46,584 nucleotides of DNA from Candidatus Sherwoodlollariibacterium unditelluris (GCA_002771995.1 PCRK01000006.1:6687-53270), one strand, 5' to 3'; numbered from the stretch's first letter, positions 4,321 to 34,059 are shown. Notes: a model not told the origin generated them from the letters alone. Numbers and translations: made by a program.

Positions 4321-5410
4321 TGATCACTTCCTGATACACCCTTTCGGTTTCTAAAACCATTTTATCCTTGGAAAAATTATCTTTTATAAATTCCTCGGCC
4401 CCTTTGGCTAAGGCCTCTCTTTTTTTCGGGTCAGCGAGCAATGTAATAATTGCTTCTTTTAATCCTTCTGTATCTCTAGGTTCAAATAATAACCCATTCT
4501 TGCCTTCCGTTATTAATGTCTTAATTCCCCCTACGCGTGATCCGATAACCGCAAGGCCTGAGGCCATTGCCTCCATAAGCGCCAAGCCTAAGCCTTCTTT
4601 TAATGAAGGCATAACAAATATGTCCATTGCCGGTAAAATTTCCCTTGTATCATAGGCCTCAGGTATAAAAAAAACACTCTTTTCAATGTTAAAACTCTCG
4701 GTTAATCTTTTTAGCTCTTTTTCCATTTTGCCTTCTCCGACAATAAGCAACTGGGCCTCAGGATAAATTGCTAAAATTGATTTCATCGCCCCAATAAGAT
4801 ACTTATGCCCTTTAACATCCGAGAGACGGGCCACAATCCCCACAACCGGGCCAGATTTTAAGCCCAGTTTAAGCTTAGCTTTTTCTCTATCGGCTGCGGA
4901 AAATCGTTTGAATCTATCCATATCAATACCGTTATGCACTAAAATTATCTTGGAGGGGTTTAATTTAAAATCATTAATCAGATGCTCTTTTACCTGCTCG
5001 CTTATAGCAATTACTCTCTCACCCCAGCACGGGAAAATCCTACGGGCCAATCGCCTTTTAAAGAAACCGTGACAGGTAGAAATATGTTTTACGCCGGTAA
5101 ACTTATGCAACAAACACCCTAACACCTGCGTAGTCCGGCTATGTGAATGCACGATATCAATTTCGTTATCTTTAATTATCTTAGATAATTTAAACGCGCC
5201 TAATATTATTTTAGGGCTTAATTCATTCTTAGTCTTTATGGGTATGGGGATATGCCCTATCCCTAATTCCTTAAATTTAGGCAGGAGCCCTCCGCCGCCC
5301 GATGCGATAAATACGCTATGCCCTCTTTGCTTTAGGCCGCAGGATAAGTTTAATATATAACTGGTAATCCCTCCGATATTAAGATGATTGACGAGAAAAA
5401 GTATTTTCAC
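4304..5410 (-). CDS. GT4 family glycosyltransferase
   Basis: GT4 architecture with an EGLGLALMEAMASGLAVIGSRVGG (E-x7-E region) motif. The GTG start is supplied by the junction element. Confidence 0.9.
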   Translation of the reverse strand: MKILFLVNHLNIGGITSYILNLSCGLKQRGHSVFIASGGGGLLPKFKELGIGHIPIPIKTKNELSPKIILGAFKLSKIIKDNEIDIVHSHSRTTQVLGCLLHKFTGVKHISTCHGFFKRRLARRIFPCWGERVIAISEQVKEHLINDFKLNPSKIILVHNGIDMDRFKRFSAADREKAKLKLGLKSGPVVGIVARLSDVKGHKYLIGAMKSILAIYPEAQLLIVGEGKMEKELKRLTESFNIEKSVFFIPEAYDTREILPAMDIFVMPSLKEGLGLALMEAMASGLAVIGSRVGGIKTLITEGKNGLLFEPRDTEGLKEAIITLLADPKKREALAKGAEEFIKDNFSKDKMVLETERVYQEVINERAG

Positions 5411-5486
5411 CCCGCACCTTCCCCCTTATTCAGTTACCTAAAGTCCCGCGCCTTCTTAACTGCTTGAATACAAAAAAGGTGCGGGG
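5410..5486 (-). mobile_element. Stop/start junction element copy 1 (MITE/REPIN-like)
   Basis: Inverted ends CCCCGCACCTT / AAGGTGCGGGG. Flanked by TTCA (plus strand) at 5406-09 and 5487-90. The terminal G plus the flanking TG forms the GTG start of the GT4 gene. Confidence 0.7.
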
Positions 5487-5487
5487 T

Positions 5488-7575
5488 TCATTTTAAGAAT
5501 TTATCTATTGCCTGGAGTACTTCTTCAACAGTAATCATATTCATACATCTCCTATGCCTACATTTCGGTTTATAGCACGGGCTGCAAGGTAGTTCCTTGC
5601 GTATAATCACAAAGTCTTTGGCCGGAGGCATGTGCCTTATAGGCTCTGTAGGGCCAAAAAGAGCGATAATAGGAGTTTTGACTGCCGCGGCAATATGCAA
5701 AGGCGAAGAATCAGCAGAGATATAAACCGCACAGCGCTTAATCAAACAAACTAACTGATTAACCGTGGTCTTTGCGCAAGCATTAATTATCTTGGTATTC
5801 TTTACCATTTTAATAAGCGTATTGGCATCTAAAAGGTCGCCCTGAGTACCTGTTATTACTACGCGTATGTTTCTTAAACCAAGCTCATCGCAAAGCTTGG
5901 CAATGCGCTCCTTAGGCCAACATTTAGTTATCCATCTTTTGCTGGCGTTTATATTTATCCCGACAACTTTCTGGCCGTCGCTTAACCACTGCGTATTTAA
6001 TAAATTCTCCACATATTCTTCATCATCAGAAGAAGGCCACAATTCCAGATGATTATCTTTTAAATCTATGCCTAATAGCTTTAGCATCCTAAACTGATGT
6101 TCTACCGGGCCAATTTTTGGCTGGTCATCTTTTTGCCGGTGGTTAAGCAGAAAACCTAACTTTTTATTATCATACCCATAACGATTAAGGCTTAATGAGA
6201 GAAAAGAAAGGGCGTGGCTTAGGCGGCTATTCTGAAGGTCAACAACTAAATCAAAATTTTTCTTCCTTAGAATACGCGCGGCACCTAATAACCCTTTAAT
6301 CCCCTTATCTTTATTTTTAAGGTCAACCACCAAGAGTTTGTCTATATAAGGGCATCTCAACAACACATCTTTAGACTCTACGCCAACTAAAAGGCTTATT
6401 TCATAGTGCGGGAACTTCTCCCTTATTGCCCTAATCCCGGCGATAGAAAGAATAACATCTCCCAGCGAGCTTAATTTAATAATTAATAATTTAAAATTCT
6501 TCGTGGCATCCTCGTAAACCTTTAGGGTATTTTCTACCATAAGCTCTACGTTGTATTTTTCCCTCACCCTCGTAATAGCTGCTTCACTAAGATTAGAAGC
6601 TAACTGTGGGTCTCTAAATATTCTTAGCGCCGCCTCGGCCATACTACTAGGGTCAGCGGGAGGAACAAGAAGGCCATTCTTATTATTCTCAATGATATCT
6701 ACAACTCCACCCACTTCCGTAGCCACTACCGGCACCCCTGCTGCCTGCGCCTCTATAATTACCCTGCCAAAAGCTTCATGGGTAGTGGTTGAAAGCACCA
6801 GGAGGTCCAGATGCGATAAGATTTCCGGAATATTCTTTTGCGTCCCTAGAAATTCCGTGCAGTGGTCAAGGCCCAGCCTCCTGGTTAAAACATGCAGCTC
6901 CTCTTTATAGGCCTCGTGTGATTTTTGAGCATCTCCAACTACCCAGACTTTTAGGGAAGGGACTACCTTAGCAACTTTAGCCATCGCCTTAATAAAATAC
7001 AAGTGGCCTTTAATAGGCGTAATCCTGCTGATAATTCCGATATTAAACTCCCTGCCTCTTCTTTTGTCAGGCCGGGAGTACTTAAATTTCTCTAAGTCTA
7101 CGCTGCGCGGTATCAGCCTTATTCTCTCGTGCGGAACGGCAAAGGCTTCAATCATATGCCGGGCAATAACATTACTTAAGACAATCACTCTCTTTGCCCA
7201 ACCCATCACATAACTAAAGGGATGTTTTTTATAATAGCCATGGCAGGTAGTGATAAATACGGCATTAGTCCTGCGGCAGGCAAAATAAGCAATCCAAGCC
7301 GGCACGCGCGAACGCGCGTGCACGATATCTATCTCCTCTTTTTTTATAATCTCAACTAAAAGAGGGACCATTTTAACCATGGTGAAGATTGATTTCTTAT
7401 GCACGGGTAACTGGTAGTGCTTAGCGCCTACTGCCTCTAAATCCTTAACCAGTGTTCCGCCGGCAGAGACTACAACCGCTTTATGATTCAGGCGTACCAG
7501 ATACTTGGCTAAATCCAAAGTCCCGGTCTCTACCCCTCCGACATTTAATTCCGGTAAAATCTGCAGTATATTCAC
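5488..7575 (-). CDS. GT4-GT9 fusion glycosyltransferase
   Basis: The N-terminal half has the GT4 motif EAFGRVIIEAQAAGVPVVATEVGG. The C-terminal half has the GT9 motifs LLIIKLSSLGDVILS and ADSSPLHIA. The GTG start is supplied by the junction element. Confidence 0.85.
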   Translation of the reverse strand: MNILQILPELNVGGVETGTLDLAKYLVRLNHKAVVVSAGGTLVKDLEAVGAKHYQLPVHKKSIFTMVKMVPLLVEIIKKEEIDIVHARSRVPAWIAYFACRRTNAVFITTCHGYYKKHPFSYVMGWAKRVIVLSNVIARHMIEAFAVPHERIRLIPRSVDLEKFKYSRPDKRRGREFNIGIISRITPIKGHLYFIKAMAKVAKVVPSLKVWVVGDAQKSHEAYKEELHVLTRRLGLDHCTEFLGTQKNIPEILSHLDLLVLSTTTHEAFGRVIIEAQAAGVPVVATEVGGVVDIIENNKNGLLVPPADPSSMAEAALRIFRDPQLASNLSEAAITRVREKYNVELMVENTLKVYEDATKNFKLLIIKLSSLGDVILSIAGIRAIREKFPHYEISLLVGVESKDVLLRCPYIDKLLVVDLKNKDKGIKGLLGAARILRKKNFDLVVDLQNSRLSHALSFLSLSLNRYGYDNKKLGFLLNHRQKDDQPKIGPVEHQFRMLKLLGIDLKDNHLELWPSSDDEEYVENLLNTQWLSDGQKVVGININASKRWITKCWPKERIAKLCDELGLRNIRVVITGTQGDLLDANTLIKMVKNTKIINACAKTTVNQLVCLIKRCAVYISADSSPLHIAAAVKTPIIALFGPTEPIRHMPPAKDFVIIRKELPCSPCYKPKCRHRRCMNMITVEEVLQAIDKFLK

Positions 7576-7646
7576 CCCGCACCTTCTCTCTTAATTAAAT
7601 CTATAAACCATATGACTTTAATATTTAAATATTTAGAAGGTGCGGG
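7575..7646 (-). mobile_element. Stop/start junction element copy 2
   Basis: Same inverted ends. Flanking direct repeat ATTCA at 7570-74 and 7647-51. Supplies the SD and GTG of the GT4-GT9 gene. Confidence 0.7.
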
Positions 7647-7648
7647 AT

Positions 7649-9592
7649 TCATAATATCTTTTCTAGCGCCTCACTAACTAAATAATTATCTCTTAGGGAA
7701 TGCGCGGCTGGCTTAGCGCGCCAAACTGCTTCAACCGTTTTGCTTAAATTAGCGCTTTCAGTCAAATATATATATTTCTTCTTGACAAAATACCTTAAGA
7801 AACGCTGATGTTTAATGCTTAGGCCGGGGGCCTTAAAGACAAAAACATATTTCTTGCTATTCACTGCCTCAGAAATCATGGATATGCTCTCAGGAGAAGA
7901 AATAATAATACTGCTTAGGCCCAATATTCCACCGATGGCAGTCGGGATATTTTCTTCGTTAGCGATAATCAAAACCTTGAGACGGGGATAATCTTTAAAT
8001 TCCCGTTTAATCATTGCCTCTACCTCTAAAGATGTGCGCCGCGAAGTAGTAATCAAAATACCGGCGTCTATTTTATCAGCTAAAGACTTTACTTCTCTTG
8101 CAACATCAAGCATAAACTTAGGGGAAAGGGAAAATTTTTTACTCTCCCCCCCTATTAACAATCCTATATATAACCCTTGCTTATTCAAACCTTTAAAACT
8201 TATAAGCCTTGCTGATTCTTCCGCCAGATATTTTTCGTCTATAAGATTAAGCGCGCCTTCAATCGCGAGGAGATTCTTTCTCCTTAAGGGGCGATCGTGC
8301 CGCGGCATAATCACCAGGTTAAACCTATGCGTGCTTAATATAGAGGGGCGCAGGATTGCAACGGATACGCTTAAATTCTCCCGGGAGAGGACGAAATTCA
8401 CCCCCGCGACTGAAGAACCGGCCGAGATAATTATATCGGGTTTAAGGCTCGCTAATATTCTATAAGTATCTTCGGTTAAAAATTTCTTTAGGCACCCAAG
8501 ACAACCCTGGCAATGGTATTTTCCCGATAATGTAACGCAGATATTAAAGAAAAACCTGGCAGGCTTACTCTTAAATTTCACCTCTACGACATTAATTTTG
8601 GCAATTATATCTTTAGTGCTTAACAAGCCCCGCGCTATTTTCGCTACCGCCTCTGACTGACGCAGATGCCCGGCCTTTCCGTCGCTTAATATAACTATCT
8701 CTCTTTGGCCGGAATATTTGAAGATTTTATAAGTCCAAAGGTATTCTCTGGGATATTTACGAATAAAACCTTCAAAAAAAGAAACAGCCTTACGAAGATT
8801 ATCCCTTATATCCTGTTCTTCATCATCAGTCCTGCTTACTGTAAGCTGTTTTCCCACCCATATCTTTATTTTTGGCCCCCGGACCCTGGTAAAGAATACC
8901 GGGATTAATGCCGCATCATATTTCAACGCTAACTTTATCGCTCCTGTAGGCATAGAAGCAGGACGGCCGAAAAAATCAACCAATATCCCCATTCTACCGC
9001 CCTGGTCCACAGTGATGCCTATGGCTTGATTATTCTTTAAAGAACCGACTAATTCCCTTAAGCCGCCGGCGCGGGTGATTATCTTACAACCCTTATTCTC
9101 ACGGTAACTATTAAGCAGCTGATTCAGGCGGGGAAGCCTTTGGTCTTTGACAAAGACGGCAAAAGGAAAACCTAATCTTGCGCATATAATATTGGAGAAT
9201 TCCCAGCTTCCGGCGTGGACGCTGGCAAGGATTACGCCTTTACTATTCTTAAAAGCCTCCCAGACATTCTCCTCACCCTCAATCTCTATGTATTTATCCA
9301 TATATTTTTTGTCGACTAAAGGGATGAGGAATACTTCAATTATACTCTGGCCAAATGACTGATAGAATTCCCGGGTCAGCTTAGATAAAACAAGAGGGGA
9401 TAAACTGCCGCCCATTGCGGCCTTAATATTAACGTAGGCCCTTGCTTTATGCTTAAGGTCAAAATAATAAAGGCAATCTCCCAGGCGCCTGCCTAAGAAG
9501 AAACTTACCTCAACCGGTAAAATCCTCAAAACCGGGCCGATGGTCTTAAAAAGAATACAACCTAAATAATCTAGCCAAAAGAAGTTCTTCAT
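7649..9592 (-). CDS. Fusion of a lipid A late acyltransferase-like domain (LpxL/HtrB family) with an ELM1/DUF1022-like C-terminal domain
   Basis: The N-terminal ~290 aa resemble lysophospholipid/lipid A acyltransferases (ASVHAGSWE region). The C-terminal part begins SDGKAGHLRQSEAV, typical of the ELM1 family. Confidence 0.75.
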   Translation of the reverse strand: MKNFFWLDYLGCILFKTIGPVLRILPVEVSFFLGRRLGDCLYYFDLKHKARAYVNIKAAMGGSLSPLVLSKLTREFYQSFGQSIIEVFLIPLVDKKYMDKYIEIEGEENVWEAFKNSKGVILASVHAGSWEFSNIICARLGFPFAVFVKDQRLPRLNQLLNSYRENKGCKIITRAGGLRELVGSLKNNQAIGITVDQGGRMGILVDFFGRPASMPTGAIKLALKYDAALIPVFFTRVRGPKIKIWVGKQLTVSRTDDEEQDIRDNLRKAVSFFEGFIRKYPREYLWTYKIFKYSGQREIVILSDGKAGHLRQSEAVAKIARGLLSTKDIIAKINVVEVKFKSKPARFFFNICVTLSGKYHCQGCLGCLKKFLTEDTYRILASLKPDIIISAGSSVAGVNFVLSRENLSVSVAILRPSILSTHRFNLVIMPRHDRPLRRKNLLAIEGALNLIDEKYLAEESARLISFKGLNKQGLYIGLLIGGESKKFSLSPKFMLDVAREVKSLADKIDAGILITTSRRTSLEVEAMIKREFKDYPRLKVLIIANEENIPTAIGGILGLSSIIISSPESISMISEAVNSKKYVFVFKAPGLSIKHQRFLRYFVKKKYIYLTESANLSKTVEAVWRAKPAAHSLRDNYLVSEALEKIL

Positions 9593-13558: not shown

Positions 13559-15593
13559 TCATCTTTTCCACTTTCCTTGGATTGCCCTGGGTCACCCCAG
13601 GACACCCGTCGGGTGTCCTGGGCACCTCTGGCAAAGTGCGCGAAACAAACCTGCACTTGGGAAAATTCGAGCAACCGTAAAAGAACCCGCGCCGCGAGCG
13701 GCGCTCAATCAGTTCTCCGCCGCAATTAGGTTCTGGACATTTAACCCCTGAGGTGATAGATTTAGAAAACTTACACTCTGGAAAATTTGAACAGCTCAAG
13801 AATTTACCTTTACGGCCCCACTTGATAATCATCTGCTTGCCGCACTTTTCGCAGATTTCCTCTGAAACGATAACTTCTTTTTTAATGTTCTTTTGCGCGA
13901 AATCCAGGCTTTCCTTAAAAGGAGCGTAAAAATCCTGCAAGACCTTCAACTTTGTAAGCCTGCCTTCTTCAATTTCATCCAATTCTTCTTCCATCAGCGC
14001 GGTAAATTTTATATCCACAATTTTAGGAAAATACTCCACTAATAAATCGCAGACTTTAAAACCTAATTCCGTAGGGTTAAAATAACCTTTAATCCGGCGC
14101 GCATAATCGCGCAGAATTAAGGTATAAATTATCGGCGCATAAGTAGAAGGCCTACCTACCCCGTCCTCATCAAGCGCTTTGATCAAAGAGCTATCTGAAT
14201 AACGCGCAGGTGGTTTGGTAAAATGCTGAGAAGGAATAATTTTAAGCAAATCCAGGGCCTCTCCCTCTTTCAATAACGGCATTTTATTTTTCTCTGTCTT
14301 TTCATTACCACTATCGTCCTCGCCATCATTATTCTTATATGCTAAAAGGAATCCTGCAAAGGTAAGCGTGCTACCGGAGGCATTGAATAAATATTTACCT
14401 GCCGCTATACCAACTGAGGTTACTGCGTAAATAGCCGGCTTCATCTGACTGGCCAGAAAACGGTTGTAGATAAGGGTGTATAATTTATGTTGATCGAGGC
14501 TTAAAAAACTCTTTAGGCTTTCCGGGTGGCGGGCAATGAATGTTGGCCGAATCGCCTCATGAGCCTCCTGCGCGAGCTTTTTTGCTTTATAGTAATTAGG
14601 CTTCTCTGGCAGGCAATCCTTCCCGAAACTTAATGATATATAATCGCGCACTTCATTAATCGCCTCGGCGGAAACGCGCGGTGAATCCGTGCGCATATAA
14701 GTAATTAAACTCACGGGGTTATCCTGTCCGATATCAATCCCTTCATAAAGCTGCTGGGCTAAAAACATTGTCTTATTGGCATTGAACTTAAGCTTATTAA
14801 AGGCATCTTGCTGCATAGTGCTGGTGATAAAAGGCGCGCTGGGGTAACGTTTTTTTTCGCTTTTCTTTATCTGCGAAACTATAAACTTCTCAATCTTGGC
14901 TTCCTGACAAACCCTTTCTGCTTCTTCTTTATTTTTTATCTCGGCCTTCTGATTATCTATCTTATCTAATTTCGCAATAAAATTACTCTGGGCTTTTGCT
15001 AATTCCGCTTCAATCTCCCAGTACTCTTTAGGGTTAAAATTCTTAATCTCTCTTTCCCTATCTATTATAAGCCTTAAGGCTGCTGACTGGACGCGGCCGG
15101 CGCTTAAACCGCGGGCGATCTTTTTCCAAAGCAAGGGGCTTAAAAGGTAACCTACAATCCTATCAAGGACTCGGCGGCCTACCTGCGCCTCAATCATCTT
15201 GGCGTCAAAATCCCTTGGTTTCTTAAACGCTTCGTTTACCGCCGCCGGAGTAATCTCGTAAAAAGTAACTCTTAACACATTCTTCATTTTATTAAAAACA
15301 CGCTCTTTTAACTGCCAGCCGATAGCCTCGCCTTCGCGGTCAGGATCAGTAGCCACATAAATAACATCCTTATCTTTAGCCTCTTTCTTAAGGCTGGCCA
15401 AGGCCTTCTGCTTGCCCGGTATTATTACATATTCAGGCTCAAAACCTTTCTCGATATTAACCCCTAACTTCTTCTGAGGCAAATCAATAATATGCCCCAT
15501 GGAAGAAACCACGCTAAAATTATCGCCTAATATTTTGCTAATGGTCTTAGCCTTAGTCGGCGACTCCACAATTACCAAATTCTTCTTTTTCAC
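13548..15593 (-). CDS. topA: DNA topoisomerase I
   Basis: Toprim domain LVIVESPTKAKTI and C-terminal Zn ribbons (CEKCGK.., CPEPNCGG..). The last ~26 codons are encoded by a GC-rich palindrome. The GTG start is supplied by the junction element. Confidence 0.95.
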   Translation of the reverse strand: MKKKNLVIVESPTKAKTISKILGDNFSVVSSMGHIIDLPQKKLGVNIEKGFEPEYVIIPGKQKALASLKKEAKDKDVIYVATDPDREGEAIGWQLKERVFNKMKNVLRVTFYEITPAAVNEAFKKPRDFDAKMIEAQVGRRVLDRIVGYLLSPLLWKKIARGLSAGRVQSAALRLIIDREREIKNFNPKEYWEIEAELAKAQSNFIAKLDKIDNQKAEIKNKEEAERVCQEAKIEKFIVSQIKKSEKKRYPSAPFITSTMQQDAFNKLKFNANKTMFLAQQLYEGIDIGQDNPVSLITYMRTDSPRVSAEAINEVRDYISLSFGKDCLPEKPNYYKAKKLAQEAHEAIRPTFIARHPESLKSFLSLDQHKLYTLIYNRFLASQMKPAIYAVTSVGIAAGKYLFNASGSTLTFAGFLLAYKNNDGEDDSGNEKTEKNKMPLLKEGEALDLLKIIPSQHFTKPPARYSDSSLIKALDEDGVGRPSTYAPIIYTLILRDYARRIKGYFNPTELGFKVCDLLVEYFPKIVDIKFTALMEEELDEIEEGRLTKLKVLQDFYAPFKESLDFAQKNIKKEVIVSEEICEKCGKQMIIKWGRKGKFLSCSNFPECKFSKSITSGVKCPEPNCGGELIERRSRRGFFYGCSNFPKCRFVSRTLPEVPRTPDGCPGVTQGNPRKVEKMIDG

Positions 15594-15665
15594 CCCGCAC
15601 CTTCTTTTTTATTCATACCCCCACCTTCTTTTTTTGAAAACTTTGAATTCTTAGAAGGTGCGGGG
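15593..15665 (-). mobile_element. Stop/start junction element copy 3
   Basis: Same inverted ends. Flanking TTCA at 15589-92 and 15666-69. The old ATG of topA is retained at the distal flank (GATGAA). Confidence 0.7.
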
Positions 15666-15671
15666 TTCATC

Positions 15672-19585: not shown

Positions 19586-19708
19586 CTTTACCCTCCTTGA
19601 GCACCTTAAGCTTTGATCTAGCGAAACTTCGACGAGTGCGTTAAAATTTTATTTTCGAAATTTTAACGCATCTTACGAGTCGAAGCCGGACACCTTAATC
19701 CACTTAGT

Positions 19709-20914
19709 TCATTCTACTATTTTTATTAGGTGAACTACCCGTTCCCTGTGAGGAAACAGGCTTCTTGGTTCATGGTTCAGTCTATTGAGCAAACTCCCCA
19801 AGCGTTGATTCCCGTAGTTCCTACGGTATTCTTCTATTCCAAGTTTTAGTATATTTATGGACGCATTCTCATCTCTGTCCATATCTATACCACATTTACT
19901 ACATTTGTGCCTTCTCACCCACAATGCCTTATGGACTATTTCGCCACATCCACTGCATATCTGTGATGTATTGCGCGGAGATACTGGCAGGGCATATTTG
20001 CCACACTCATCTGTTTTATACAGAAGTTTCTGGCAGAATCCGTTCCATGCCACATCACTGATGCTCTTGGCTAAATAGCGATTCTTAACCATATTCTTTA
20101 CCGCCAAGTCCTCGTAGGCAATCAGTTCATATTTATCAACTAATCTTCTACTTAACTTATGAGTAAAATCATTTCGTTGACTCCTTATCTTACAATGAAT
20201 TTTTGCCACAATCTTTTTTTGTTTCTTTCTATTATTAGAATCTTTTTTCTTGCGTGATAGCCATCGCTGTTGTCTGGCTAATTTTATTTCAGAATTTCTA
20301 AACCATCTTGGATTATCTATCTTTTCTCCGTTACTCAAAGTAGCAAATGAATCCAATCCCAAATCAATACCAATAGCAGTTTTTATCGGCCTGTTTTCTA
20401 TCTCTTTGTTTTTTATCTCCAAAGAAAAACAAGCATACCATTGATTTCCTTCTTTTATTATCAAACAAGTTTTAATTGTCCCTTTAATTGGTCTATGAAG
20501 TTTAATTTTAATATTGCCTATTTTAGAAAGATGAAGTTTATTACCTTTAATTTCAAAACCAGATTGCGGGTAACAAATAGAGTTATAGGAATCTCTGCCT
20601 TTGAAATGCGGAAATCCCGCCTTTTGATGTTTTTCTATTCTGCCAAAAAATGCCTTAAAAGATTTATCTAATCTTCTTAAAACATCTTGTTGTGTTTGAG
20701 AATGAACTGATTGATATTCAGGGAATGACTTCTTCAATTCTGGTAGTTGGTTTATCTGGTCATAACAGGAGATAGATTTACGAGATTGTTTATATGCAAA
20801 TATTTTCTGTTCTAATGCAATATTATATAGACGACGGCACAATTCAATATCCGAAAGTAGTTTCTGGAGCTGTTTTTTATTAAGATATATTCTATATTTA
20901 AAAGTTCTTGTCAT
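19709..20914 (-). CDS. tnpB: TnpB (RuvC-like RNA-guided nuclease of IS200/IS605)
   Basis: Starts MTRTFKYRIYLNKKQ. RuvC triad candidates are IGIDLG, IAYEDL and DRDENASINI. Zn finger CSGCG..CSKCG is present. The track ORF extends to 20998, but the ATG at 20914 overlaps the tnpA stop and fits the family N-terminus. Confidence 0.9.
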   Translation of the reverse strand: MTRTFKYRIYLNKKQLQKLLSDIELCRRLYNIALEQKIFAYKQSRKSISCYDQINQLPELKKSFPEYQSVHSQTQQDVLRRLDKSFKAFFGRIEKHQKAGFPHFKGRDSYNSICYPQSGFEIKGNKLHLSKIGNIKIKLHRPIKGTIKTCLIIKEGNQWYACFSLEIKNKEIENRPIKTAIGIDLGLDSFATLSNGEKIDNPRWFRNSEIKLARQQRWLSRKKKDSNNRKKQKKIVAKIHCKIRSQRNDFTHKLSRRLVDKYELIAYEDLAVKNMVKNRYLAKSISDVAWNGFCQKLLYKTDECGKYALPVSPRNTSQICSGCGEIVHKALWVRRHKCSKCGIDMDRDENASINILKLGIEEYRRNYGNQRLGSLLNRLNHEPRSLFPHRERVVHLIKIVE

Positions 20915-21306
20915 AGATTTTTTTGTTCTGCAATATATTTTCTTATTGTTTCTGATGTTACAGTTCCCGCAGAACCTATGAAATATGTGCGAGTCCACAA
21001 TTCATCTTTTATTATTTTCTTTAACTGTAAGAATTCTTGTCTCATTTTTCTACTTGAATATCCTTTAATTATATTAACTATTTCTGAAGGAGACCACCTG
21101 GGCGGAGCTGAAATGAAAAGATGAATATGGTCAGGCATTATTTCTAATGCTAAAATAGAAATATTATTTCTTATACAAGACTCTCTTATTATCTCTCCTA
21201 ATCTCAATTCCATTTGGCCAGTAAACAATTTTTTTCTATATTTAGGGATCCAGGCAATATGGTAATTTAGATTGTAAATACTGTATCTCGTTTTATTAAC
21301 ATTCAT
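20911..21306 (-). CDS. tnpA: IS200/IS605 family Y1 (HUH) transposase TnpA
   Basis: 131 aa, with the HUH motif PDHIHLFIS and a C-terminal Tyr region ETIRKYI. Confidence 0.9.
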   Translation of the reverse strand: MNVNKTRYSIYNLNYHIAWIPKYRKKLFTGQMELRLGEIIRESCIRNNISILALEIMPDHIHLFISAPPRWSPSEIVNIIKGYSSRKMRQEFLQLKKIIKDELWTRTYFIGSAGTVTSETIRKYIAEQKNL

Positions 21307-21421: not shown

Positions 21422-23308
21422 ATGTTTATGATTTACGACCGTTTCCAAAAAGAGGCAATTGGTTATATTAACGAGGGGTTCTCAGTCATTGTCTCAGCGC
21501 CTACTGGAGCGGGAAAAACCGCGATTGCCGAACATGTAATCACGACCTCCTTAGAAAAAAAGATAGGCGTAATCTATACCGCGCCGATTAAGGCCCTCTC
21601 TAACCAAAAGTTCCGCGATTTTCAGGGCCAATTCAAAGATAATATCGGCATATTAACCGGAGATGTATCGCTAAACCCTTTCGCCCCGGTTTTAATCATG
21701 ACCACCGAAATATTCCGCAATAAAATCTTAGATGAGCCGCAGACCCTAGAAAGATATTCTTGGGTAATATTTGACGAGATTCATTATATTGATAATCCTG
21801 AACGCGGGACAGTCTGGGAAGAATCACTTATGTTCCTGCCTAAGCATATGAATATATTAGGGCTATCCGCGACCATACCCAATATTAAACAATTCGCCTC
21901 CTGGATTGAATCCATACATAATAAGCCGATAAAAACCGTAATTGAGGAAAAACGCCCGGTTCCCCTGCACTTTTTCTTTCAGGCGGGAAATGAAGTAGTA
22001 GATAAAATAGAGCAGCTTAAAAGATTTAAATTCGGTAAACCCAATAAATTATACGGGCTCATAAATTATGTGCGTAATCAAGAGGGGCTGCCCTGCATAT
22101 ATTTTGTCTTTGGCCGAAGGCGCGCTGAAGAATTAGCCGCGGAATTAGCCAGTATAAACTTTTTGAACAAAGACGAAAGAATACAAATTACCGGACTCTA
22201 TAATTCCCTCTGTGAACGCTTTGGCTTAAAAACCGACCGCACTGCGCAGGATTTATACCAGCTTGTGCAACAAGGCATTGCCTACCACCACGCCGGGATG
22301 CTTCCTACCTTAAAAGAGGTAATTGAAAGGCTATTCACCAGCCGGCTCATAAAAGTTATCTTTACCACGGAAACATTCGCCCTGGGTATAAATATGCCGT
22401 CTCGTTCGGTTATCTTTGATGGGCTGCGTAAATTTTACGGCCGCTATGTGCGCAACTTAAAAACGCGGGATTTTTACCAGATGGCCGGGCGCGCAGGCAG
22501 GCGCGGCATAGACACAGAAGGCTTTGTTTATTCCCGCATCAACCTTCAGAAGATAAGGATTGATGAAGCAAAACGCATAATCTTTGGCCCCCCTGAAGAA
22601 GTAAGAAGCCAGCTGAATAATTCTTACGCTACGATACTTAACCTCTATGAAAAATATAAAGACGAGCTCTTTAAGGTTTATTCTTCATCGCTGCATTATT
22701 TTCAGTCGCGTAAAAACGACCAAAAAGAGGCCTTAATGCTAATTGAAGCAAAATTAAAACTACTTAAAGATTGGGGTTACATAGAAGGCAAAAATCTGGC
22801 TCAAAAGGGCCAGTTTGCCAAAACTGCCTATGGCTATGAATTAATTTTAAGCGAGCTTTACGGCCAACAGATTCTAGAACAGCTTGATGAATTTGAATTA
22901 GGCGTAGTTGCCGCGGCTGTTGTCTTTGAGCCGCGTAAAAACCAACGTATACCTTCGGGTCTGTCAAAATCTACGCGCCGGATTAAAAAAACCTGCGAAG
23001 AAATATACGATAAGATTAAAAATAAAGAGCGGAGATTTCGCATTTATCCTTTTAGCAAAATACCTTATTTCCACCTAAGTACAGCTATGGAGGCGTGGCT
23101 GCGTGGGACAACCTTTGATAAAATTCTAAGGCTTAGCGATACTGACGAAGGAGAAGTGGTGCGCTATTTCAGGATGGGTGTGCAGGTCTTACGCGAAATC
23201 TCTGATTCAAAAGCCGCCTCTTACATCTTAAAAGACAAAATCAAAGAAACCATCCGAGTAATTAACCGCGACGTGGTGGACGCCGAAAAACAGCTGCGCG
23301 AAAGCTAA
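21422..23308 (+). CDS. Ski2-like DExH helicase with a DSHCT-like C-terminal domain
   Basis: Motifs APTGAGKT, TAPIKALSNQK, DEIH, SAT and QMAGRAGRRG. The C-terminal WLRGTTFDKILRLSDTDEGEVVRYFR resembles DSHCT. This is the only plus-strand gene. Confidence 0.85.
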   Translation: MFMIYDRFQKEAIGYINEGFSVIVSAPTGAGKTAIAEHVITTSLEKKIGVIYTAPIKALSNQKFRDFQGQFKDNIGILTGDVSLNPFAPVLIMTTEIFRNKILDEPQTLERYSWVIFDEIHYIDNPERGTVWEESLMFLPKHMNILGLSATIPNIKQFASWIESIHNKPIKTVIEEKRPVPLHFFFQAGNEVVDKIEQLKRFKFGKPNKLYGLINYVRNQEGLPCIYFVFGRRRAEELAAELASINFLNKDERIQITGLYNSLCERFGLKTDRTAQDLYQLVQQGIAYHHAGMLPTLKEVIERLFTSRLIKVIFTTETFALGINMPSRSVIFDGLRKFYGRYVRNLKTRDFYQMAGRAGRRGIDTEGFVYSRINLQKIRIDEAKRIIFGPPEEVRSQLNNSYATILNLYEKYKDELFKVYSSSLHYFQSRKNDQKEALMLIEAKLKLLKDWGYIEGKNLAQKGQFAKTAYGYELILSELYGQQILEQLDEFELGVVAAAVVFEPRKNQRIPSGLSKSTRRIKKTCEEIYDKIKNKERRFRIYPFSKIPYFHLSTAMEAWLRGTTFDKILRLSDTDEGEVVRYFRMGVQVLREISDSKAASYILKDKIKETIRVINRDVVDAEKQLRES

Positions 23309-31168: not shown

Positions 31169-31636
31169 CTACTTCTTTTTTTTGTCCTTACCCAAAATAT
31201 CCTTTAACTCCACCATAAACTGACCAACATCCTTAAACTGGCGGTAAACTGAAGCAAAACGCACGTAAGCCACATCATCTAAGGCCTTTAACTTCTCCAT
31301 AACTAACTCTCCGATGCGGCTTGCCAATACTTCGCGGTCGGATTTTTTCTGGATAGCGCGCTCAACAAAAGTAACAATATCTTCCATTTTCTCAACGCTA
31401 ATCGGCCGCTTCTCGCAAGCCCGGATAATACCGGCTAACACTTTTTTACGGTCAAATGGCTCGCGCCTTCCGTCTTTCTTGATTACCATAAGTGAAACTT
31501 CTTCTATGTATTCATAAGTAGTGAAACGCTTGCCGCACTTAAGGCACTCGCGCCTGCGTCTAATCGCCGACTCTTCAGCGGTTGCCCTAGAATCCACAAC
31601 CTTATCTTCTTTATAACCGCAAAATGGGCACTTCAC
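31169..31636 (-). CDS. nrdR: Transcriptional repressor NrdR
   Basis: [19 protein letters not shown] Zn ribbon plus an ATP-cone. The GTG start is supplied by the junction element. Confidence 0.95.
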
Positions 31637-31753
31637 CCCGCACCTTCTCTCTTATTTAAGCTATCCTTTATTCTAAGTTTAAGATATGCATAAGGCTTCC
31701 CGCTCCTTAAAAGATAAACGTAATACATAGCAGAATATAAAGAAGGTGCGGGG
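31636..31753 (-). mobile_element. Stop/start junction element copy 4
   Basis: Same inverted ends. Flanked by TTCA at 31632-35 and TCA at 31754-56. Supplies the SD and GTG of nrdR. Confidence 0.65.
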
Positions 31754-32212
31754 TCATATCTTACGTACTTTAATCTTCGCTTGTTTTAAAAAATCCATGG
31801 CCATCTTATCAGGATAACCGCCGGCAATTACGATATCCTTTATCCCGGCATTAATAAGCATTTTAGCGCAGATAACGCAGGGCTGGTTTGTAGAATAAAG
31901 CGTGCTTCCTTTAACGCTTATCCCGTATAATGAAGCTTGAATAAGCGCGTTTTGTTCAGCATGCAAAGCCCTGCAGAGTTCTTGTCTCTCTCCGGAAGGA
32001 ATTTTTAATTTCTGGCGCAGACAACCGATATCAATACAATGCTTAAGTCCTGTCGGAGCGCCATTATAACCGGTAGCCAATATCCTCTTGTCTTTTACTA
32101 TAACCGCGCCTACGCTGCGGCGTAAACAAGTTGACCTCTTGGCTACAAGCTTAGCCATCTCCAAAAAATACTCATCCCAACTCGGACGCTTATGTCTTTT
32201 TTGTTTATTCAT
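31754..32212 (-). CDS. dCMP deaminase (ComEB-type)
   Basis: HAEQNAL and [10 protein letters not shown] zinc-binding motifs. Size is 152 aa. Confidence 0.9.
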
Positions 32213-33458
32213 TTCTTACGAGCTCCGGGTATAAAGGAAACTGCTTGGTTAATTTTATTACCTCTTTTTTAATCCCTTCCAGCTCCCTGGGGTCGTCCCT
32301 TGCCTCTATAGCATCGTTAATAAACTTAGCGATATGGCGCATATGGAATTCTTTTAAGCCGCGGGTAGTTACTGCCGGAGTCCCAATCCTTATACCGCTA
32401 GTTATCCCTGCGTCTTTCTTATCAAAAGGAATTAAATTCTTATTCACCGTAATGTTAACCTGGCCTAAAACATTAGAGGCGTCCTTACCGGTAATCCTCT
32501 TTGAGTTTAAATCCACCAACATCAGATGCGTATCCGTTCCCCCTGAAACAATACGGAAATTATTTTTAGCTAAGGCCCTAGCAAGCTCTTTGGCATTTTT
32601 AACAATTTGCCTCTGATAGGTTTTAAATTTCGGGCTCATCGCTTCCTTAAACGCTACAGCCTTGCCGGCAATAACATGCATCAGCGGCCCGCCTTGTATT
32701 CCGGGGAATATCTGCGCGTCAATTTCCTTGGCGAATTCTTTTCTGCATAAAATAAAACCTCCGCGCGGCCCGCGCAAGGTCTTATGCGTAGTAGAAGTAA
32801 CAAATTCGGCAAAAGGCACTGGCGATGGATGGACTCCCGCAGCAACTAATCCGGCGATATGCGCCATATCCACAAATAAATAGGCTCCGACTCTATCGCA
32901 TATTTTTCTAAAGGCTTTAAAATCTAATCTTCTCGGATACGCAGAGGCGCCGGCGAGAATCATCTTCGGCTTATGTTTTTTTGCTAAACCCATAATCAAA
33001 TCGTAATCGAGCATTTCAGTCTTACGGTCCACACCATAACCTACCATCTTAAAAAGTCTTCCGGAAAAATTATGCGGATGACCGTGGGTCAAGTGCCCTC
33101 CAGCAGCTAAGGCCATAGCCAAAACCGTATCCCCGGGCTGAAGGGCTGCAAAATAAACCGCCATATTCGCCTGCGAACCTGAATGCGGCTGGACATTGGC
33201 ATGCTCAGCTGTGAATAACTTCTTAGCCCGTTCAATAGCTAACCTCTCAACTTCATCCACATATTCACACCCGCCATACCAACGATGGCCGGGGTAACCT
33301 TCGGCGTATTTATTGGTTAAAACCGAACCCTGTGCTTCAAGCACAGCTAGGGAAGTAAAATTCTCCGAGGCAATTAATTCTAAATTCTCCTCTTCTCTCT
33401 TAAGTTCGTCTTTAATCGATGCGTAAATTTCAGGATCAACGAATTTTAAGTGCTTCAC
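32205..33458 (-). CDS. glyA: Serine hydroxymethyltransferase
   Basis: [21 protein letters not shown] and [14 protein letters not shown] motifs. The GTG start is supplied by the junction element. Confidence 0.97.
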
Positions 33459-33596
33459 CCCGCACCTTCTTTCTTATTCATATAACTAAAATCTCATGCC
33501 TTTTTTTAAACTGCTTGAATCCCGCACCTTTGGTATATCTTATTATTTCTTTGAATATCTATCAAGGTGCGGGATGAATACCCTGAAGGTGCGGGG
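33458..33596 (-). mobile_element. Stop/start junction element copy 5 (composite, with a nested inner arm pair)
   Basis: Outer arms are at 33458-69 and 33585-96, and inner arms at 33519-33 and 33563-75. Flanking TTCA at 33454-57 and 33597-600. Supplies the SD and GTG of glyA. Confidence 0.65.
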
Positions 33597-33597
33597 T

Positions 33598-34059
33598 TCA
33601 CTTTCTTCCACCCCTTATCTTTCTTTCAATCTCTCTAATTTGGGCTAACCGCCTTTTATGCCTTCCGCCTTCAAATTTTGTATTCAGCCAAACTCTAACA
33701 ATTCTCTTAGCCAAATCCGGCCTGACAAATATTGAGCCTAAAACCAGAACATTGCTATCATTGTGCCTGCGGGAAAGCTTAGCTGCCTTTACGTTATAGG
33801 ATAGGGCTGCGCGCACGCCCGGAAGCCTATTAGCAACGATAGAATTGCCTATCCCGCTTTTACAGATAAGAATCCCTCTTTTAAACTTTCCTTTAGATAT
33901 TTTATCAGCAAGGGCATAAGCAAACTCCGGATAATCGCAACGTTCATCGTCAAAAGGGCCTAGGTCTTTTACTTTAAGGCCAATTTTATTAAGAAACGGT
34001 TTTAATTTTTCTTTTAAGGCAAAACCTCCGTGATCCGAGGCAATAAGTATCGGAGTCAT
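33598..34059 (-). CDS. rpiB: Ribose-5-phosphate isomerase B
   Basis: IASDHGGFALKE and CKSGIGNSIVANR motifs. Size is 153 aa. Confidence 0.92.
   Translation of the reverse strand: MTPILIASDHGGFALKEKLKPFLNKIGLKVKDLGPFDDERCDYPEFAYALADKISKGKFKRGILICKSGIGNSIVANRLPGVRAALSYNVKAAKLSRRHNDSNVLVLGSIFVRPDLAKRIVRVWLNTKFEGGRHKRRLAQIREIERKIRGGRK

Follow-up and report, generated by a model that had tools for sequence, protein, structure and literature searches.

What becomes of a gene when a transposable element lands on its start codon? The question is raised by a stretch of 46,584 nucleotides from Candidatus Sherwoodlollariibacterium unditelluris (GCA_002771995.1 PCRK01000006.1:6687-53270; 'the window' below means this whole stretch at its full length), in which five spacers ahead of genes carry the same short element with inverted-repeat ends. 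The element is mobile: inverted repeats form its ends, and its insertion duplicates a 4-bp target (consensus TGAA). It is hence a MITE (miniature inverted-repeat transposable element). After insertion the upstream repeat keeps the old [A/G]TG, together with the TGA stop of the upstream gene where the two genes had overlapped as ATGA, and the last G of the element joins the TG of the downstream repeat to form a new GTG (an ATG in a subfamily with T…A tips). Translation of a short leader from the old start, followed by recoupling at the new one, probably renders such an insertion at a start codon nearly neutral for expression.

On the minus strand, which codes for 43 of the 44 window genes taken as real, each copy reads in the order TGA(A), CCCCGCACCTTC, a variable AT-rich interior, a box of the TGAATAAG type, three to four purines, GAAGGTGCGGGG and a second TGAA. 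The 12-nt terminal inverted repeats CCCCGCACCTTC…GAAGGTGCGGGG are present in all five spacers, exactly where the original prediction had placed them, and the elements are 73-139 nt long, copy 5 turning out to be a nested pair. The arms had been described as a 12-bp repeat; they are there, but the inverted repeat is longer and continues into TATTCA/TGAATA boxes. When up to two mismatches are allowed GAAGGTGCGGGG matches the window 14 times, always inside the five spacers, whereas shuffled versions of the window gave 2.8 +/- 1.6 matches and none of 100 attained 14. Four copies are flanked by TGAA on both sides and copy 4 by TGA and TGAA. In all five the element's final G and the TG of the proximal repeat make the GTG that opens a long open reading frame (ORF), and the older start codon is retained as a relic at the distal flank. 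The copies are as follows.

5410..5486, minus strand: MITE copy 1 (GT4 gene start), 77 nt
5487-5490 and 5406-5409, minus strand: left and right TGAA of copy 1; new GTG at 5410-5408
5487-5490: within this left TGAA the GT4-GT9 gene ends on TGA; together with A5491 the word also forms the relic ATG
5444-5455: GAAGGCGCGGGA, putative internal decoy arm of copy 1
7575..7647, minus strand: MITE copy 2 (start of the GT4-GT9 fusion gene), 73 nt, with T as its left tip
7648-7651 and 7571-7574: TGAA flanks of copy 2; relic ATG at 7652-7650, new GTG at 7575-7573
7572..7652, minus strand: mini-ORF of copy 2, MNPAPSKYLNIKVIWFIDLIKREGAG and stop, from the relic ATG to a TGA overlapping the new GTG (GTGA), open across the whole element
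15593..15665, minus strand: MITE copy 3 (topA start), 73 nt
15666-15669 and 15589-15592: TGAA flanks of copy 3; relic ATG at 15670-15668, new GTG at 15593-15591
15680-15676 and 15674-15672: upstream of copy 3, the relic Shine-Dalgarno sequence AGGAG and the dprA stop TAG
15590..15670, minus strand: mini-ORF of copy 3, 26 residues, from the relic ATG to a TGA overlapping the topA GTG, open throughout
31636..31753, minus strand: MITE copy 4 (nrdR start), 118 nt
31754-31756 and 31632-31635: flanks of copy 4, on the left TGA only (the stop of the deaminase gene), on the right TGAA
31757-31755 and 31636-31634: relic ATG and new GTG of copy 4
33458..33596, minus strand: outer element of MITE copy 5 (glyA start), 139 nt with the nested element counted in
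33597-33600 and 33454-33457: TGAA flanks of copy 5; relic start GTG at 33601-33599, new GTG at 33458-33456
33520..33574, minus strand: nested element in copy 5, 55 nt, TCCCGCACCTTG…CAAAGGTGCGGGA, within the TATTCA box

Copy 3 at topA is the clearest case, with AGGAG-N5-ATGAA kept immediately before the element and after the dprA TAG. The nested element is flanked by a TTCA duplication (33575-33578, 33516-33519), the reverse complement of TGAA, and splits the GTATTCAAGCAG of copy 5 that stands uninterrupted in copy 1. About half of all copies contain a third, degenerate right-type arm (in the window at 5444-5455 and 15617-15628, for example), with (A)TGAATAAG behind it as a rule. A hairpin of about 50 nt, such as the nested copy, L040:6710 or L230, may have given rise to the common 73-76 nt form by gaining a duplicated proximal end.

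The GTG starts predicted for the GT4 and GT4-GT9 genes, topA, nrdR and glyA are borne out by the ORFs, by Pfam and by independent gene calls. Pfam alignments start at residues 1-12 of the GTG-opened ORFs (NrdR, TopA, SHMT, GT4): the NrdR zinc ribbon, residues 1-42, aligns to positions 1-42 of its profile, Toprim from residue 6 and SHMT from residue 5. Gene calls made independently on the source contig agree on the starts of the five proteins (681, 695, 368, 417 and 155 aa), and Pfam also supports the starts of the L36, L9 and AlaRS genes outside the window. MITE insertion accounts for five GTG-start ORFs among the 44 window genes.

A scan for further arm pairs had been suggested as a check; scans of genome and metagenome collections, followed by a profile search, led to at least 159 copies with the same anatomy and the same preference for starts. 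A scan of a genome collection, which used the proximal end only (TAANNNNGAAGGTGCGGGG) and left the flanks free, gave at least 35 element matches in at least 18 species-level metagenome-assembled genomes (MAGs), nearly all of them reading [A/G/T]TGA(A), CCCC…GGGG and TGAA in turn. Of the 18 MAGs among the matches listed, 15 are labelled Candidatus Omnitrophota/Omnitrophica and three carry a Planctomycet- label; the family is widespread in Omnitrophota. Chance matches in unrelated phyla acted as a built-in control, their flanks being nearly always random and none having a partner arm. A metagenome scan that required two perfect arms separated by a gap of 43-73 nt, again with unconstrained flanks, yielded at least 116 unique elements on more than 100 contigs. 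Hainich groundwater, Lake Pavin and JGI sediment series are among the sources of the matches. For 98 of the 116 there is just one orientation in which the TG of a flank starts an ORF of 60 codons or more, and this set of 98 copies underlies the counts given below. Copy numbers and taxonomic range from both scans are lower bounds. With an nhmmer profile the number of unique copies having both arms with at most two mismatches came to at least 159; 147 of the 173 copies detected by nhmmer have perfect arms, in a set that was partly ascertained on the arms. Copies are 47-171 nt long (compound ones up to 265 nt) with modes at 70, 73 and 76, and contain no transposase gene, the sole ORF being a leader of 20-40 codons. 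Because identical copies occur in independent ENA, Logan and JGI assemblies, the element is not an assembly artefact. MAG copy numbers are probably underestimated, as the repeats break short-read assemblies; one Logan contig (L246, SRR5435975, 2508 nt) stops within copy 5, 75 nt upstream of glyA. Contigs encoding an identical GlyA have the same arrangement or are broken within the element, and are uninformative on strain polymorphism. Viral contigs, searched as a possible vehicle, gave no match.

Two variants stand out within this collection. A subfamily with T…A tips (TCCCGC…GCGGGA) rebuilds ATG rather than GTG at L220:1576, L231:1840, L165:2232 and L088:5904, and the nested window copy at 33520-33574 is also listed in it. 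L122:850-945 and L197:1538-1634 have the same perfect 12-nt arms around a GC-rich, unrelated interior; the former lies between 5-bp direct repeats (CTCCG) and adjoins a 926-codon open frame. These two may represent a related family of a high-GC organism, or chance.

The evidence for mobility comes from the flanks. TGAA flanks occur in 90 of the 98 copies, and the 4-nt flanks are identical in 80. Where they depart from the consensus they change together (ATGAG…TGAG in five copies, ATGGA…TGGA in L016). Thirteen pairs of filled and empty orthologous sites were found among the loci already collected for the family survey, with downstream proteins that are 69-88% identical, and in these pairs the filled site minus the element and one repeat matches the pattern of the empty site. 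L206 with its element removed reads aaataaaATGAACTTAAAATAC and the empty L175 gaataaaATGAACTTAAAATGC; L016 likewise gives ATGGATAAG against ATGGATAAA in L074, and the window's glyA gives AAAGTGAAGCAC against AAAGTGAAACAT in L169 and L183. The original prediction had taken the TGAA flanks for a target-site duplication and had restored canonical junctions by deleting the elements in silico; the identical and co-varying flanks support the former, and empty sites in relatives, which it had proposed to seek, match the latter. In tandem arrays two or three elements share single TGAA words (ATGAA-element-TGAA-element-TGAA), as at L047:7428-7609, where the first unit has matching changes in both arms (CCCAGC…GCTGGG), and at L011:5196-5362; compound or abutting copies lie at L088:5888-5975 and L004:2418-2693. 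Flank duplication, co-variation, empty sites and nested or tandem copies together establish the element as a MITE. Four of five MITE hallmarks were found, namely a short unit without transposase, terminal inverted repeats, a duplication with empty sites, and dispersal in many copies.

Insertion follows the start codon. Around 90% of copies sit on one, and the left flank, which the metagenome scan did not constrain, reads at positions -5 to -1 A78/G15, T92, G87, A92 and A88 (n=98), so that the original start does survive distally, as A/G-TGAA, in most copies. Of the 159 unique copies, 135 lead into an ORF of 60 codons or more; in a further nine, equally flanked, the ORF is short and in three cases encodes the 37-aa ribosomal protein L36, and several of the 15 'other' copies are likewise at gene starts, including two five-C variants and a copy at an L9 gene. 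Occupied genes include topA, glyA and nrdR within the window; outside it the element was met at rpmJ, rplI, alaS and a dihydroorotase-like gene, among others. The element had been thought to insert exactly at stop/start junctions. Such overlaps do occur, the distal TGA being the stop of a long upstream ORF in 35 of the 98 copies and in about 17 of 35 in the genome set, but in the remaining copies the relic ATG is an ordinary free-standing start, and the rule of insertion is the start codon, not the junction.

The exceptions follow a pattern of their own. In L131:5373-5452, L185, L189 and L214 the duplicated word is TTGA from a TTGACA hexamer (-35 box). The regenerated TTGACA is followed by N17-TATAAT in L131 and by N17-TAAACT in L185, leaving a sigma-70-type promoter complete downstream. 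TAAA is duplicated in L127:10043-10139, L174 and L230; in L127 only 3 nt separate the end of the element from the secY ATG, where its arm would replace the native Shine-Dalgarno sequence and the start codon is untouched. In the clearest of these sites the downstream signal is regenerated intact.

How, then, might the downstream gene be translated? The lengths of the elements give a first indication, since a length of 1 mod 3 puts the relic start in frame with a TGA overlapping the new GTG. Such a length is found in 61 of the 98 copies, against 23 and 14 for the other residues, and the length classes 70, 73, 76, 79 … 97 contain 59 of the 61; in the independent genome set the three residues count 23, 7 and 5 (23/35 being 1 mod 3). 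The relic start is in frame in 52 copies, and in 39 of these the frame is open to the terminal TGA, compared with 8.2 expected from shuffled interiors and a maximum of 20 in 20,000 shuffles. When the variable centre alone is considered, the leader frame is open in 58 copies and the other frames in 18 and 25. A GTGA overlap together with an open leader ORF is therefore present, at the level of sequence, in 39 of the 98 copies as well as in window copies 2 and 3. The leader peptides begin MNPAPS and end NK[KE]EGAG with scant conservation in between, which suggests that what is conserved is the frame and not a protein. The TGAATAA box places a TGA or TAA in the other two frames 17-22 nt ahead of the start, and of 86 leader ORFs 57 come to their stop no more than 22 nt from the new start; because of these stops no N-terminal fusion with the host protein can arise. 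Programmed bypass, or an N-terminal extension, was considered and rejected, as the leader is read in a frame other than the gene's, and in the gene's own frame the TGAATAA box puts a TAA 18 nt ahead of the start.

Ribosome-binding signals are found at both ends. With the canonical anti-Shine-Dalgarno sequence assumed, the relic Shine-Dalgarno sequences, at -5.7 kcal/mol, equal those of native genes (-5.5) and are stronger than random positions (-3.0 to -3.6). Under the same assumption a strong Shine-Dalgarno match is offered by the proximal arm AAGAAAGAAGGTG, at -10.2 kcal/mol, with -13.1 for the consensus. The GAAGGTG of this arm had been proposed as the Shine-Dalgarno sequence 5 nt upstream of the GTG; the match is strong, but it ends 4 nt ahead of the new GTG, and its use is a matter of prediction.

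The predicted RNA fold supports the earlier suggestion that the arms can pair and occlude the start. In all five window copies the arms pair, at -29 to -47 kcal/mol (z -3.5 to -6.0), and the predicted hairpin hides GAAGG and the first base of the GTG. That so stable a hairpin would cover the ribosome-binding site of essential genes speaks in itself for some bypass of this kind. The degenerate right-type arm, present in 52 of the 98 copies at 32-59 nt from the proximal end and having no left-type equivalent in any copy, could contribute: with it, the fold that leaves the right arm free has -17.6 kcal/mol, and freeing costs 12.8 kcal/mol versus 23.7 without it. Co-variation of the arms was rejected as evidence for RNA structure, for the changes are mostly one-sided C-to-T substitutions (19 keep G-U pairing, 22 break it) and the 'both-sided' ones mostly represent the T…A tip subfamily, which is uninformative on this point. 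A role as terminator or promoter was likewise rejected. Terminator prediction picked out none of the window's elements as intrinsic terminators, and a promoter scan of the window stayed at chance level (27 found versus 25.3 expected), with one chance-level match overlapping an element end. Rfam had no match across the whole window.

These features can be combined into a mechanism. Ribosomes would initiate at the relic ATG by means of the retained Shine-Dalgarno sequence, or reinitiate there after the upstream gene. The hairpin of the two arms would bury the Shine-Dalgarno sequence and the new start until the left arm is unwound, and the leader ORF (MNPAPS…NKKEGAG), which always spans the left arm, would melt it. 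In the majority length class the leader would end on the TGA overlapping the new GTG (GTGA), and the downstream gene could then be initiated at its own Shine-Dalgarno sequence and GTG by RNA unfolding, by termination-reinitiation, or by both. In the other two frames the TGAATAA box would bring translation to an end 17-22 nt ahead of the start, blocking N-terminal fusions, and the degenerate internal right arm may serve as a decoy partner for the left arm. Where genes had overlapped as ATGA, the old coupling would be kept as a two-step relay. An insertion of this kind should be close to expression-neutral even in essential genes, which would explain why copies in just this niche withstand purifying selection in very compact genomes. 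Both models of coupling, and the predominance of NTGA overlaps, are established (PMC12548453). The original prediction had likewise seen the element as expression-neutral and as enforcing coupling; for the coupling, three-periodic lengths, open frames and retained relic Shine-Dalgarno sequences are strong comparative evidence, and the step itself is inferred.

Several observations weigh against this account. The fully open leader ORF is found in only 39 of the 98 copies, and 46 of the 98, out of frame or without a relic start at -5, persist all the same. The length differences at orthologous sites show no clear preference for multiples of three (about 8 of 20 pairs, as read from a table), and for this reason the three-periodicity may derive from a few master copies, with nominal statistics that are inflated. 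The use of the Shine-Dalgarno sequence, the translation of the leader and the coupling are all read from sequence, and a 16S 3' end that would confirm the anti-Shine-Dalgarno sequence was sought in the collected loci and not found. The metagenome sample was chosen on perfect arms, and so the conservation of the arms cannot be taken as selection. On the side of mobility, only the duplication informs on the transposition chemistry. In 1.4 Mb of collected loci no two arms 0.5-4.5 kb apart turned up outside the short elements and no arm pair encloses a gene, and tblastn with the E. coli IS5 transposase at E<=1 had no match in 1.67 Mb of them. A parent element or a RAYT with the same ends, which the original prediction had proposed to look for, is accordingly missing from the 1.4-1.67 Mb of collected loci, and the 10 kb beyond the window edge contain neither a transposase nor a further copy.

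Is the seat on start codons chosen, or is it what selection leaves behind? The machinery might actively pick translation-start regions, for example NTGAA in AT- or purine-rich, easily melted DNA, and do so in one orientation, in which case the pattern would not have been created by survivorship after insertion. This is a live possibility, if a little less likely than not. Available sites in the window are about equal in number, 18 of the 44 genes starting with NTGAA and 19 TGAA/TTCA words being free in intergenic positions, and yet five of the former and none of the latter are occupied; the concentration at starts across the family points the same way. TGAA makes up 92% of the duplications but 41% of start contexts, and TGAT, with 16% of starts, is never used, which argues for an intrinsic preference T-G/T/A-A/G-A. 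The orientation of the element relative to the gene is fixed, 52 versus 0, when judged by a marker independent of the flanks (the internal right-type arm), and second elements have repeatedly entered the TGAA made by a first. On the other hand the minority duplications TTGA, TAAA and TTTA lie at other function-preserving positions, as would be expected from loose targeting and a survivorship filter, and the nested copy has TTCA on the same strand, so that orientation to the target word is not obligatory (a single case). The left flank has no conserved bases beyond -5, and a strong hairpin carrying a Shine-Dalgarno sequence and a GTG could do harm when intergenic in genomes that are 94% coding. 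The TTGACA and TAAA classes, together with the nested copy of opposite polarity, speak against a machinery bound to start codons and for a selection that retains sites where function is preserved.

Taken further, the element could be a transposon that has evolved for the start-codon niche, homing to NTGAA starts in one orientation and carrying with it an 'expression repair kit' composed of the first base of the start, a strong Shine-Dalgarno sequence, an in-frame leader with an overlapping stop, stops in the other frames and a decoy. We put this forward only tentatively and think it rather unlikely. If true, selfish DNA could occupy about a tenth of the genes, essential ones included, in compact genomes across a phylum; it is conceivable, as a further step, that the hairpins now serve the host as a genome-wide layer of translational control.

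Domestication proper seems improbable. The host would on this account keep the copies as a phylum-wide translational control, with about 10% of genes dependent on leader translation and their expression tuned or coordinated by it. Elements at orthologous starts do keep perfect arms around interiors that have decayed to the family background (proteins 76-90% identical), though this conservation is confounded by the ascertainment on perfect arms and by possible independent insertions, and the lengths differ at orthologous sites. Retention of the reading frame, the relic Shine-Dalgarno sequence and the decoy arm, and the high density in the window (5/44 genes), would fit as well. Against these stand the plain empty sites at the same genes in close relatives, the want of a functional theme among LPS (lipopolysaccharide) glycosyltransferases, topA, nrdR, glyA, rpmJ, rplI, alaS and secY, and the nested and tandem copies, which resemble parasitic accumulation.

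It is very unlikely that the element is a hairpin mobilised by an HUH/Y1 transposase (REPIN/RAYT-like, or a PATE of IS200/IS605) that inserted 3' of TGAA, with the second TGAA as its own end. It does resemble REP/REPIN-RAYT and IS200/IS605 palindromic elements in its single long hairpin shape, its high copy number and the fixed tetranucleotide alongside, and a Y1 transposase gene is present within the window. REPIN-RAYT and IS200/IS605 systems, however, depend on a Y1 transposase and make no target duplication; as the duplication here is real, a Y1 mechanism is excluded for the MITE. The reading is largely refuted by the co-variation of the flanks (TGAG/TGAG five times, TGGA/TGGA): the right flank follows the left and matches the native gene in empty orthologues, and in the case of L016 the empty site ATGGATAAA assigns the right TGGA to the gene and not to the element, which also removes a palindrome derived from IS200/IS605 as a candidate. 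The window's Y1 gene is paired with TnpB, and its end hairpin, GCGTTAAAATTT/AAATTTTAACGCA, is unrelated to the arms. REPIN/REP-RAYT was rejected on the same grounds, since the arms are not self-complementary REPs, TGAA is duplicated host sequence, and neither a GTAG/CGTC tag nor a RAYT was seen. Of the earlier label 'MITE/REPIN-like', then, the first half holds and the second does not, Y1 belonging here to IS200/IS605. An immobile native intercistronic RNA structure or protein-binding site, for which a stable hairpin recurring at a fixed position to start codons might speak, can practically be dismissed, being refuted by exact presence and absence at orthologous sites with a 4-bp duplication, and opposed by nested and tandem copies, relic starts with relic Shine-Dalgarno sequences, and the lack of an Rfam match.

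The start-codon MITE with its translated leader, which we continue to prefer, shares with the Correia/NEMIS elements of Neisseria, pneumococcal RUP and MITEAba12 a short unit without transposase, terminal inverted repeats, a duplication and a multi-copy state. Known MITEs are intergenic (Correia duplicates TA), or disrupt or extend genes. None was found on record with a systematic seat on the start codon, a start rebuilt from tip and duplication, or a leader kept in frame. A full-text literature search that included the arm sequences turned up only unrelated primers and general reviews, and no description of this element or of a MITE regenerating start codons, most subscription journals lying outside its coverage, in agreement with the earlier statement that no described element combines these properties. 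Bacterial MITEs in general are short and multi-copy, have terminal inverted repeats and a short duplication, are co-transcribed with their neighbours and may carry expression signals (PMC3184786). The REP2 repeats of Neisseria, 120-150 bp long, have no terminal inverted repeats and carry a promoter, a ribosome-binding site and a whole ATG, with no known insertion mechanism or duplication; they and the upstream inverted repeats of Borrelia supply ribosome-binding site and ATG together (PMC3184786). The MITE, unlike REP2, ends in terminal inverted repeats and duplicates 4 bp; the old start stays behind, and of the new one no more than the first base comes from the element. With the promoter scan at chance as well, a REP2-type repeat was rejected. 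Rickettsia palindromic elements (RPEs) are selfish palindromic repeats tolerated inside the translated part of genes (cited in PMC3184786). In contrast to these, which are translated within the host protein, the MITE would be translated as a separate leader in another frame, TGAATAA blocking fusion.

Buried ribosome-binding sites that are opened by an upstream ribosome are known from VII/IX of phage f1 and coat/lysis of MS2, and a Shine-Dalgarno sequence is needed there for efficient restart (PMC12548453). The GTGA stop/start overlap and the ribosome-binding site within a hairpin resemble this coupling by NTGA and RNA unfolding; the difference is that the upstream ORF in f1 and MS2 is a real gene, whereas here a leftover start reads through a transposon and the insertion delivers the arrangement ready-made. 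Inserts neutralised at translation, by ribosome hopping, are otherwise represented by the T4 gene 60 bypass and the mitochondrial 'byp' elements of Magnusiomyces. The MITE is like them in being harmless through translation instead of splicing, but it would be read, terminated and restarted, and there is no homology in sequence or mechanism.

A partial likeness to IS5 was also noted. The terminal repeat GGAAGGTGCGAATAAG of E. coli K-12 IS5A (L247) shares the 9-mer GAAGGTGCG and AATAAG with the proximal end of the MITE, compared in the form AATAAG-NNN-GAAGGTGCGGGG (window 5410-5432, for example), and IS5 makes 4-bp duplications. Membership in IS5 was rejected because the shared words are reversed in polarity to the tip and in order, and no IS5-like transposase was found in the collected loci.

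Start-codon regeneration with translation through the insert would add a further route to those by which inserts in genes are tolerated, namely splicing (introns, inteins), in-frame tolerance (RPEs) and ribosomal bypass. The family offers hundreds of natural replicates for the study of coupling and RNA unfolding behind a hairpin of about -30 kcal/mol at topA, glyA, rpmJ and alaS. For annotation in Omnitrophota it implies that 'spacers' of 80-140 nt may be neither promoters nor terminators. As repeats the copies break assemblies, filled and empty sites could mark lineages in this uncultured phylum, and the element might serve synthetic biology as a compact, portable coupling cassette.

The remainder of the window has features of separate interest. 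A low-GC patch (0.34) holds an IS200/IS605-type insertion sequence at 19709-21306 on the minus strand, the ends of which are unrelated to the MITE arms, with the following gene.

20911-21306, minus strand: Y1 transposase, 131 aa, overlapping the TnpB/OrfB_IS605 gene at 19709-20998

Downstream of it lies the hairpin GCGTTAAAATTT/AAATTTTAACGCA, within CTTCGAC…GTCGAAG (19637-19670), as expected for the right end and omega-RNA region. The LPS-core cluster contains two fusion genes on the minus strand, one at 7649-9592 that joins a lipid A acyltransferase to an ELM1-like domain (647 aa) and the other at 5488-7575 that joins a GT4 glycosyltransferase to a GT9 heptosyltransferase (695 aa). The only plus-strand gene of the window, at 21422-23308, adjoins the IS200/IS605 unit and encodes a DEAD-box/Suv3-like helicase with a C-terminal DSHCT domain (Ski2/Mtr4-type), a kind of helicase that is unusual in bacteria.

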